Positions 7,595 to 8,278 of a stretch of DNA of 9,734 nucleotides are shown here, piece by piece. The notes beneath the pieces are model-generated. The model saw only the letters and a program-made list of their open reading frames with translations. It ran no database searches and was not told the origin of the DNA. The position numbers and the translations under genes were made by a program. The stretch's first letter is position 1, and every line of letters starts with the position of its first letter. The stretch covers positions 1-9,734 of the IMG/VR virus record IMGVR_UViG_2681813004_000016; one strand, 5' to 3'. Origin of the DNA: a virus (taxonomy: Duplodnaviria; Heunggongvirae; Uroviricota; Caudoviricetes).

Positions 7595-7924
7595 GTGCTT
7601 GAATGGTTTCTGTTGGCTGCATTAGTCGTTTCTGGTTTGGTGTATGAGTATCGAATGCACTCTCTAACAAAAAAAATAGGAATTCTAGAAAACGAATATT
7701 GTGCTCTCAAATCCTCACTGGAACGTGAGCAAGGAGACTTAAAAGTCTCTCTGTCTAGCATTGAGCGTTCTATAGAGAGCCTAGAGGATAAGGTTGATCG
7801 TATAAAGAATGAGGATATTCATGATATTAAGGACGACATATCCTTCTTAAAATCTTGGTTGAAAAATGTTGGTAAAATTGCCAAATCAACACGAGATAAG
7901 CTCAATCCATCCATGGATGACTAA
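7595..7924 (+). CDS. Hypothetical small membrane-anchored coiled-coil protein (109 aa)
   Basis: GTG start 7595 preceded by TAAGGAGG (7583-7590). N-terminal hydrophobic helix EWFLLAALVVSGLVYEY followed by basic residues, then a heptad-rich acidic coiled coil. AT-rich gene. No family recognised. Confidence 0.5.
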   Translation: MLEWFLLAALVVSGLVYEYRMHSLTKKIGILENEYCALKSSLEREQGDLKVSLSSIERSIESLEDKVDRIKNEDIHDIKDDISFLKSWLKNVGKIAKSTRDKLNPSMDD

Positions 7925-8278
7925 TTACTCCTGTGCCATTCCGCTTAGCGATGCCACAATTCCAGCCCTTGCTAAACGCTGGAACTCTTCGTTTCCTAGT
8001 GCCTCGCGTATTGCTTTTACGGCGGCCTTATTTGCCATAAATCTGCGTTCTGCCGCCGCTAATGCGCCATCACTTGCCCCAACCTTAACTGCCTTTGTTG
8101 CCTCTTGAACAGCCTTTTCAATAGCGTAACGACCACTTCTGGTTGCGGATAATTTCGCTATCGATCCTTTTGCTATCGCATCAATTGCTCCACCTGCAGC
8201 GCCACCAACTATTGCTCCAATAACACCTCCTCCAGAGAACCCTGCGATAGCGCCAGCGGTTGGAAAAGCGCCAGACAA
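7925..8278 (-). CDS. Hypothetical glycine-zipper membrane protein (117 aa); bacteriocin/membrane-toxin-like composition
   Basis: TTG start 8276-8278 with AAGGAGAGGG RBS. N-terminal 35 residues AGAIAGFSGGGVIGAIVGGAAGGAIDAIAKG form repeated GxxxG/AxxxG zippers; C-terminal part is Ala/Lys-rich and helical. No signal peptide or double-glycine leader seen. Stop codon directly abuts the stop of the 7595-7924 gene (TAATTA). Confidence 0.5.
   Translation of the reverse strand: MSGAFPTAGAIAGFSGGGVIGAIVGGAAGGAIDAIAKGSIAKLSATRSGRYAIEKAVQEATKAVKVGASDGALAAAERRFMANKAAVKAIREALGNEEFQRLARAGIVASLSGMAQE

Follow-up and report, generated by a model that had tools for sequence, protein, structure and literature searches.

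Do two short open reading frames (ORFs) that meet stop codon to stop codon form a membrane-acting unit of their own, or are they parts of genes already known? The question is raised by positions 7595 to 8278 of a 9,734-nucleotide stretch of viral DNA (IMG/VR record IMGVR_UViG_2681813004_000016, positions 1 to 9,734; hereafter, the whole stretch is called the window), where one ORF on the plus strand converges on another on the minus strand. An earlier reading of the letters alone (the sequence-only reading) saw an N-terminally anchored coiled-coil protein and a glycine-zipper protein, neither matching a nameable family, which would repress each other through antisense transcription and might act in superinfection exclusion (Sie), as an abortive-infection (Abi) effector or as a toxin with its immunity protein. 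Its description of the layout holds: both ORFs exist, their abutting stops read TAATTA, a terminator scan finds no intrinsic-terminator-like site between or just after them, and the plus-strand gene is AT-rich (GC content 0.376 versus 0.512 in the minus-strand ORF and 0.473 in the window) and encodes a protein with a single hydrophobic segment at the N-terminus and a long helix after it. Both products can be named, however. The plus-strand ORF is a member of the HkcB family (coliphage HK620 hkcB; phrog_5962), and the minus-strand ORF is, by its homology, a dead 3' fragment of gene 16, the ejection or DNA transfer protein gene of P22-like phages (phrog_770), and no gene of its own. These two identities are practically certain, and both are already catalogued; the feature as flagged is a known, ordinary phage gene junction in a decayed Escherichia coli prophage. 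Taken as a whole, the best explanation, and a likely one, is that positions 7595 to 8287 come from a P22-like (Lederbergvirus) prophage and are the edge of its "ant moron" nearest to gene 16, with hkcB in the slot that sieA occupies in P22, lying within a mosaic defective prophage next to dacD and sbmC.

The minus-strand ORF (117 residues) aligns gaplessly, at 94% identity, with residues 590 to 706 of the 706-residue gp16-type ejection protein of E. coli E50, and its TTG "start" is the internal Leu590 codon of that protein. In the intact P22-like prophage of E50 (at tRNA-Arg/intS), a 2,121-nt gene for a "DNA transfer protein" ends in the same sequence and is preceded by two other ejection-protein genes in the order 7-20-16; for Z1323CEC0018, an E. 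coli strain with an identical stretch, RefSeq gives a pseudogene "missing N-terminus". The full remnant is 97% identical to residues 603 to 722 of the 722-residue HK620 gp16, the minus-strand ORF matches phrog_770 at its C-terminal end only, and P22 gp16 is 71% identical by BLASTP to the full-length homolog of the remnant across the N-terminal domain. Full-length gp16 proteins gave no match in our local Pfam copy, although precomputed annotations assign them PF26808 (Phage_P22_gp16); the identification of gp16 rests on PHROG, on gene order, on the names used in RefSeq and on BLASTP against P22 gp16. P22 gp16 is an ejection protein thought to reside in the inner membrane (PMC10883804). The Gly/Ala-rich hydrophobic segment that heads the minus-strand ORF was seen correctly, but it lies within the gene-16 remnant and the "glycine zipper" is, by alignment, an internal gp16 segment and not the start of a small protein. 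Intact genes of this kind have about 706 to 722 codons. A complete gp16 of about 600 to 870 residues, following genes 7 and 20 in a late operon, is not present in the window; about 17% of the protein (120 codons) is left, the N-terminal domain and late promoter are gone with the lost 83% of the length, nleG and not gene 20 lies upstream, and genes 7 and 20 are absent.

The point at which gene 16 was cut can be placed within positions 8271 to 8287. Homology to gene 16 stops at position 8287, homology to nleG-bearing lambdoid prophages starts at 8271, and the overlap is a 17-nt microhomology, CCAGACAATACCCTCTC, found both within gene 16 and downstream of nleG in lambdoid prophages; in the three-way alignment, the crossover reads CCAGACAAT-C-CTCTC. 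Recombination at this microhomology fused gene 16 to the nleG end of a lambdoid prophage, decapitating gene 16. The fusion also places an SD-like (Shine-Dalgarno-like) AAAGGAGAGGG from the nleG side a few nucleotides upstream of the in-frame TTG, and the 117-residue ORF looks startable because the nleG-side sequence supplies this site by chance. The same gene-16/nleG junction was seen only in the window and in three related Korean chicken isolates.

Does the pair nevertheless recur as a unit? The locus sample comprised 57 viral contigs encoding HkcB relatives together with reference phages and prophages. The convergent gene 16 is full length in 57 of 63 loci, with open frames of 702 to 829 codons; it is truncated, at differing points, in the window and in five other loci (L001, L010, L014, L043 and L057). 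The hkcB gene is intact in 62 of 63, including the six with a truncated gene 16. A toxin/immunity, Abi or exclusion module of two small membrane proteins under convergent antisense transcription is therefore barely credible, even though both ORFs exist with abutting stops and no terminator, the minus-strand fragment starts hydrophobic and Gly/Ala-rich, and an SD-like site stands near its TTG. The supposed second member is a piece of a virion protein, its exact ORF occurs only in the window and the three chicken isolates, the truncations in L010, L014, L043 and L057 have other breakpoints, and hkcB is found with many different neighbors and also without any truncated partner. Two intact genes co-occurring as a conserved toxin/immunity or toxin-antitoxin (TA) pair were thus not found among these loci, and homology searches instead tie the minus-strand ORF clearly to a characterized structural phage protein. 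What survives of the roles first suggested is superinfection exclusion, for the coiled-coil protein alone and as a replacement of sieA; the toxin/immunity pair is not supported.

The stop-to-stop layout needs no special function either, since a convergent arrangement without a terminator is ordinary architecture in P22-like phages. The ant moron is a variable insert between gene 16 and the tailspike gene with no morphogenetic role, and the late operon must read through it to reach the tailspike gene (PMC2629481). A terminator is lacking at the junction because antiterminated late transcription has to continue beyond gene 16 and across the moron as far as the tailspike gene. The prophage-expressed genes sieA and mnt of P22 face opposite to the late operon, and hkcB of phage CUS-3 is the last gene of a same-strand, mnt-side cluster. 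Mutual antisense repression, which the sequence-only reading regarded as built in, has no basis in the window because gene 16 has lost its promoter and most of its length. A candidate hkcB terminator in the 3' end of gene 16 (a 7-bp hairpin with a U-rich tract, approximately 7960 to 7997) was rejected: its conservation does not extend to the eps34 type, and positions 7905 to 8085 fold with only mild stability (z = -1.87).

The gene on the plus strand is intact. Its product is 96 to 97% identical to HK620 HkcB (NP_112088) and 48 to 49% identical to the products of eps34 gene 14, CUS-3 hkcB and an ORF of SEN22; it matches phrog_5962 (function unknown) over its full length (E = 4e-60, residues 2 to 109 on profile positions 2 to 109 of 109), and RefSeq carries it as the "hypothetical protein" WP_058101021. 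An exhaustive phmmer search of 1.84 billion representatives returned seven matches, all from one small family, with two distant members at 34% and 31% identity. A conserved SD and GTG and the pattern of identity between the two main hkcB types at codon positions 1, 2 and 3 (0.59/0.75/0.47 overall and 0.66/0.91/0.41 for residues 63 to 94) mark hkcB as coding. A purifying signature is clear between the types in the C-terminal half, contrasting with the variation within types.

HkcB is predicted to have a single N-terminal hydrophobic anchor (residues ~4 to 17) followed by an amphipathic helix of about 90 residues reaching to residue ~103, and the AlphaFold2 (AF2) model is one continuous helix over residues 2 to 103 with a mean pLDDT of 72.6. 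A profile search of PDB sequences with HkcB returned only designed or generic coiled coils. In all four subfamilies, the hydrophobic segment begins at residues 1 to 4 and is followed by a 3.6-residue hydrophobic periodicity; no Lys or Arg precedes the transmembrane (TM) segment, and three or four lie within the next 15 residues. The C-terminal motif W-x-x-N-V-G is invariant, including in the relatives at 31 to 34% identity. Two proteins from short metagenome contigs (P0019 and P0020) are products of chimeric ORFs in which the invariant C-terminal ~45 residues of HkcB follow ~60 unrelated N-terminal residues lacking the hydrophobic anchor. An identity as an Rz-like i-spanin was rejected in view of the missing Lys/Arg before the TM segment, the strand opposite to the late operon, the position outside the lysis cassette and the lack of a constant lipoprotein partner.

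Position ties hkcB closely to gene 16. Their stops abut without a gap in all 63 close loci (TAATTA in 62, TGATTA in 1), and in the relatives at 34% and 31% identity the neighbor is again a convergent gene 16, at a distance of 3 to 4 nt; one distant relative lies directly downstream of mnt on the same strand. Across the junction, over the 15 final codons of hkcB and the ~47 final codons of gene 16, runs a block of ~185 nt that is more than 93% identical between types that are otherwise only ~50 to 60% identical and is conserved at synonymous sites as well. Because both hkcB types occur with four gp16 body types, the block is probably a homologous-recombination boundary that would allow hkcB types and gp16 bodies to reassort. 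Conservation at synonymous sites, together with a within-type dN/dS near neutral, could instead mean that hkcB acts mainly in cis, with antisense transcription or an RNA or DNA element in the block tuning how much transcription passes from gene 16 into the tailspike gene, and with the protein as incidental. This is decidedly improbable, because ORF length, SD, GTG and a conservation order of position 2 over 1 over 3 are kept between types, the WxxNVG motif and the TM-plus-helix design persist in relatives at 31 to 34% identity, Rfam matches nothing in the whole window, there is no strong structure, and the block is simply explained as a recombination boundary.

The gene is accessory and, in intact phages, stands alone. 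Phages Bas106 and Huey share the same gp16 C-terminus and have no moron, gene 16 leading straight to the tailspike gene; these moron-less phages, together with the published account of the moron (PMC2629481), establish that hkcB is dispensable and not structural. Louie, Dewey and phiSG1 have the same C-terminus and no hkcB match. An obligatory linkage of hkcB to that C-terminal type was therefore discarded, as was a pairing of hkcB with the Panacea gene, which is present in only a minority of loci. Some part of the hkcB/gene-16 sequence occurs in ~5% of complete E. coli genomes at most, always in the chromosome.

What, then, does hkcB replace? In P22, sieA occupies the same slot and converges on gene 16 with a 22-nt gap, which is constant in 29 of 29 sieA loci with a readable flank. 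None of 31 sieA loci contains hkcB, and none of the 63 hkcB loci contains sieA or the SieA motif FxRYPxEAxxFNK, which was found only in P22 among 64 sequences scanned (the 63 loci and the window). Directly upstream of the P22 sieA start stands TTTTTTCATGGTATCCTGCACAAAACTAAGGAGGTTGGTGTG, which is the same leader, SD and GTG as in hkcB, with the annotated P_sieA just upstream. Of the hkcB loci, 47 have the exact 34-nt leader pattern, as do L102, L103, P22 and 13 further sieA loci; with up to four mismatches, it is present in 19 of 31 sieA loci, and the alternative upstream contexts of sieA match those of hkcB loci, including that of the window. In HK620-context hkcB loci, at least 70 nt of the P22 upstream region are held in common. 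An extended -10-like TGgTATCCT (7564 to 7572) within the leader is a candidate promoter, as inferred from its sequence, and in other phages the leader, taken as its reverse complement, is the SD of the divergent gene hkcC. With the same leader, SD, GTG and slot, and with mutual exclusivity, hkcB is an allelic cassette replacement of sieA.

Other occupants share this slot. Two further prophages, represented by L103 and L102, carry behind the same leader a protein with four hydrophobic segments and a protein with two. No relationship links these two proteins to one another, to SieA or to HkcB, and the gene of each converges, at a gap of 17 nt, on a gene 16 whose C-terminal type is a different one. 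All occupants found are membrane proteins, and the slot between the leader and the gene-16 stop is a cassette site for small membrane proteins.

We tentatively propose, as something close to an even call yet short of it, that HkcB is a prophage-expressed inner-membrane superinfection-exclusion protein that blocks DNA delivery. In P22, sieA with 85 bp of upstream sequence suffices for exclusion from a single chromosomal copy, and mutations that escape SieA lie toward the C-termini of gp16 and gp20 (PMC10883804). Because hkcB faces against the late operon and has the leader of sieA, it may be expressed in the lysogen as sieA is. We speculate that, made from a sieA-type promoter and leader, HkcB would insert in the inner membrane by its N-terminal anchor, oligomerize through its ~90-residue helix and act at the gp16/gp20 conduit as SieA does, hindering superinfecting P22-like phages in delivering their DNA. 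Somewhat more tentatively still, HkcB could represent a second, nonhomologous class of gene-16-linked exclusion protein, and the slot a swappable site for at least four unrelated small inner-membrane blockers of DNA entry (SieA, HkcB, the 116-residue 4-TM protein and the 62-residue 2-TM protein), each travelling with a particular gp16 C-terminus.

Several observations weigh against exclusion as the function. Positional replacement shows shared regulation, not shared function, and HkcB has no BLASTP alignment with SieA and no sequence, profile or fold similarity to it. It likewise has no BLASTP alignment with HK97 gp15 (hhalign probability of 0.3%) and no match to the YebO Pfam family, so that no sequence or profile homology to gp15/YebO-like Sie proteins was found. 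Pfam, NCBIfam and PADLOC scans of HkcB gave only subthreshold coiled-coil noise (XhlA, FlaC and SMC-like), and a Foldseek search of the AF2 model against PDB returned nothing. The positive-inside rule places the helix in the cytoplasm, where it would be unable to touch a periplasmic conduit. Variable codons within types are mostly nonsynonymous (18 versus 7 and 23 versus 7), which fits weak constraint or diversifying selection as well as it fits function. Of the P22 P_sieA region, the window retains no more than the 34 proximal nt, its promoter-like matches are no more than expected by chance, and expression of this copy is only putative. A literature search on hkcB and its identifiers yielded a single source, the eps34 genome paper, which goes no further than naming the gene and listing it as of unknown function within the ant moron (PMC2629481). 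A paper on the Tai system was set aside as a source on hkcB, since it mentions HK620 but treats the tail needle, another locus.

Such points bear on a different role for the same protein. HkcB might be a prophage-expressed membrane protein that acts as an Abi or other defense effector, as an anti-defense protein, or as a host-fitness or envelope-modifying factor, given that ant moron cargo is diverse (Panacea TA, the lipoprotein-like eps34 gp15 and ORFs weakly resembling PtuB/NsnC), that HkcB is not similar to any Sie protein and that its predicted cytoplasmic helix would suit a sensor or adaptor as well as a blocker. We regard this as unlikely, if a serious candidate: the slot, leader and linkage to gene 16 are precise and common to sieA, unlike the freely varying upstream cargo, and PADLOC gives no match. 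In eps34-type loci, the divergent neighbor of hkcB, gp15 (L004, 3960 to 4379), starts MKRIISVVAGVIMLSGC, a lipoprotein-like signal with a lipobox, and is another envelope-targeted moron product.

Exclusion, if it is the function of the family, need not be exercised by the copy in the window, which sits in heavily rearranged surroundings. The window starts with E. coli-like chromosome (sbmC and dacD) and continues as a mosaic of prophage segments: the N-terminal fragment of a P22-type tailspike, an antirepressor, Arc/Mnt-type repressors, an insertion sequence (IS) transposase fragment, a Panacea/SocA gene, lambda-type tail genes L and M, a tape-measure fragment, the NleG gene and a tail-fiber C-terminus. 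The fragmentary state of IS, tail genes, tailspike and gene 16 and the absence of the distal P_sieA-type upstream region would suit a decaying, unexpressed relic of hkcB lacking current function. That it is such a relic is improbable, since its ORF, SD and leader are intact, it is 97 to 100% identical to copies in intact prophages, and the upstream context of the window also precedes sieA and hkcB in more complete loci. None of 5,426 complete E. coli genomes has the exact arrangement of the window, the Korean chicken isolates being closest.

Other pieces of the mosaic can be described briefly. The Panacea antitoxin gene, divergent from hkcB, has lost its 3' end and its downstream 139-residue partner to the IS fragment; the partner is kept in L001 and L002. 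Homology to intact prophages begins at 6812, the last ~12 codons are altered, and the IS transposase fragment (6195 to 6779, minus strand) stands in place of the partner, leaving the antitoxin orphaned. In intact prophages, the 139-residue gene (phrog_8366; weak PADLOC NsnC match, E = 6e-6) follows the Panacea gene by 4 nt (compare L002, 7542 to 8409). Lambda-type tail genes L and M with the C-terminal end of the tape measure (4846 to 6352, minus strand) separate the P22-type Arc/Mnt genes from the IS fragment, and strain PK8241 has the Ant/Arc-to-tail-L junction of the window. Near a P22AR/Bro-N antirepressor (3259 to 4173) lie a 106-residue Arc-domain protein with a C-terminal coiled-coil extension (4509 to 4829, plus strand) and a 53-residue Arc-like ORF (4245 to 4406, minus strand), together an immI-like region whose control is unlike that of P22, with no sar RNA by Rfam.

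Table 1. Features of the locus and of related loci; positions refer to the window unless a locus is named
Feature	Position	Strand	Remarks
sbmC	811-1284
dacD	1403-2575
Panacea/SocA-domain antitoxin gene	6801-7226	-	Divergent from hkcB; PF13274, E = 1.7e-24
Cassette leader TGGTATCCTGCGCAAAACTAAGGAGGTTGGTGTG (34 nt)	7564-7597	+	Common to hkcB, P22 sieA and two other slot occupants
SD AAGGAGG	7583-7589	+	5 nt before GTG; kept in almost all hkcB loci and before P22 sieA
hkcB homolog	7595-7924	+	Intact, GTG start, 109 residues
Conserved DNA block (~185 nt)	7879-8064		Alignment A2, columns ~320-505
Stop-to-stop junction TAA/TTA	7922-7927		hkcB stop and gene-16 stop, zero gap
Minus-strand ORF	7925-8278	-	TTG start, 117 residues
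Gene-16 pseudogene	7925-8287	-	3'-terminal 120 codons of a P22-like gene 16 (ejection/DNA transfer protein, HK620 type)
Recombination breakpoint	8271-8287		17-nt microhomology; three-way alignment and coverage limits of homology matches
NleG type III secretion system effector gene	8386-9033	-	Intact, lambdoid prophage, upstream of gene-16 remnant; PF06416, E = 5.8e-38; RefSeq
116-residue slot protein	L103, 3536-3886		Four hydrophobic segments (~4 TM); E. coli SF-088 prophage
62-residue slot protein	L102, 3532-3720		Two hydrophobic segments (2 TM), unannotated in RefSeq; E. coli TO6 prophage

The junction itself is thus familiar, and the equivalence of hkcB and sieA as cassettes is a modest new lead. 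The hkcB gene was named in 2001 and has not been studied since, a DNA-entry-blocking mechanism for SieA was proposed only in 2024, and ejection proteins of the HK620 type partly evade SieA. Should HkcB and the other two cassette proteins be exclusion factors, they would form a natural panel of unrelated inner-membrane blockers of one DNA-delivery conduit, which would help to dissect how gp16 and gp20 cross the inner membrane.

Among known systems, HK620 hkcB (like eps34 gene 14 and CUS-3 hkcB) is the same gene, equal in length, in SD and GTG and in zero-gap convergence on gene 16 within the ant moron; the difference is one of context only, the phage in the window being defective with a truncated gene 16. 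The minus-strand sequence is likewise 94 to 97% identical to the C-terminal 117 to 120 residues of HK620/E50-type gp16, and differs from the gp16 genes of P22 and HK620 in being a truncated pseudogene without genes 7 and 20 upstream. HK97 gp15, which Cumby and colleagues reportedly described in 2012 as functioning as a single-pass inner-membrane Sie protein encoded beside the tape-measure gene, resembles HkcB in design: in both, a TM segment from residue ~3 with no N-terminal Lys or Arg is followed by a charged helix, and both are moron products encoded beside the gene of a DNA-conduit protein. However, gp15 has 62 residues compared with 109 in HkcB, is encoded on the late-gene strand and belongs to a siphovirus, not a podovirus. 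P22 SieA differs in having 162 to 164 residues, at least three TM segments and the FxRYPxEAxxFNK motif, whereas HkcB (107 to 109 residues) has one TM segment, a long helix and no such motif; by sequence, by motif and by the expected build of ~162 to 200 residues with three or four TM segments, a protein of 109 residues with a single hydrophobic window is no SieA. The gap to gene 16 is 22 nt for sieA and 0 for hkcB, and each is linked to a different gp16 C-terminus. Nonetheless, both genes lie between genes 16 and 9 as the last of the ant moron, convergent on gene 16 and oriented against the late operon, behind the same P_sieA leader, SD and GTG; their alternative upstream contexts agree, both encode membrane proteins, and the two genes are mutually exclusive.

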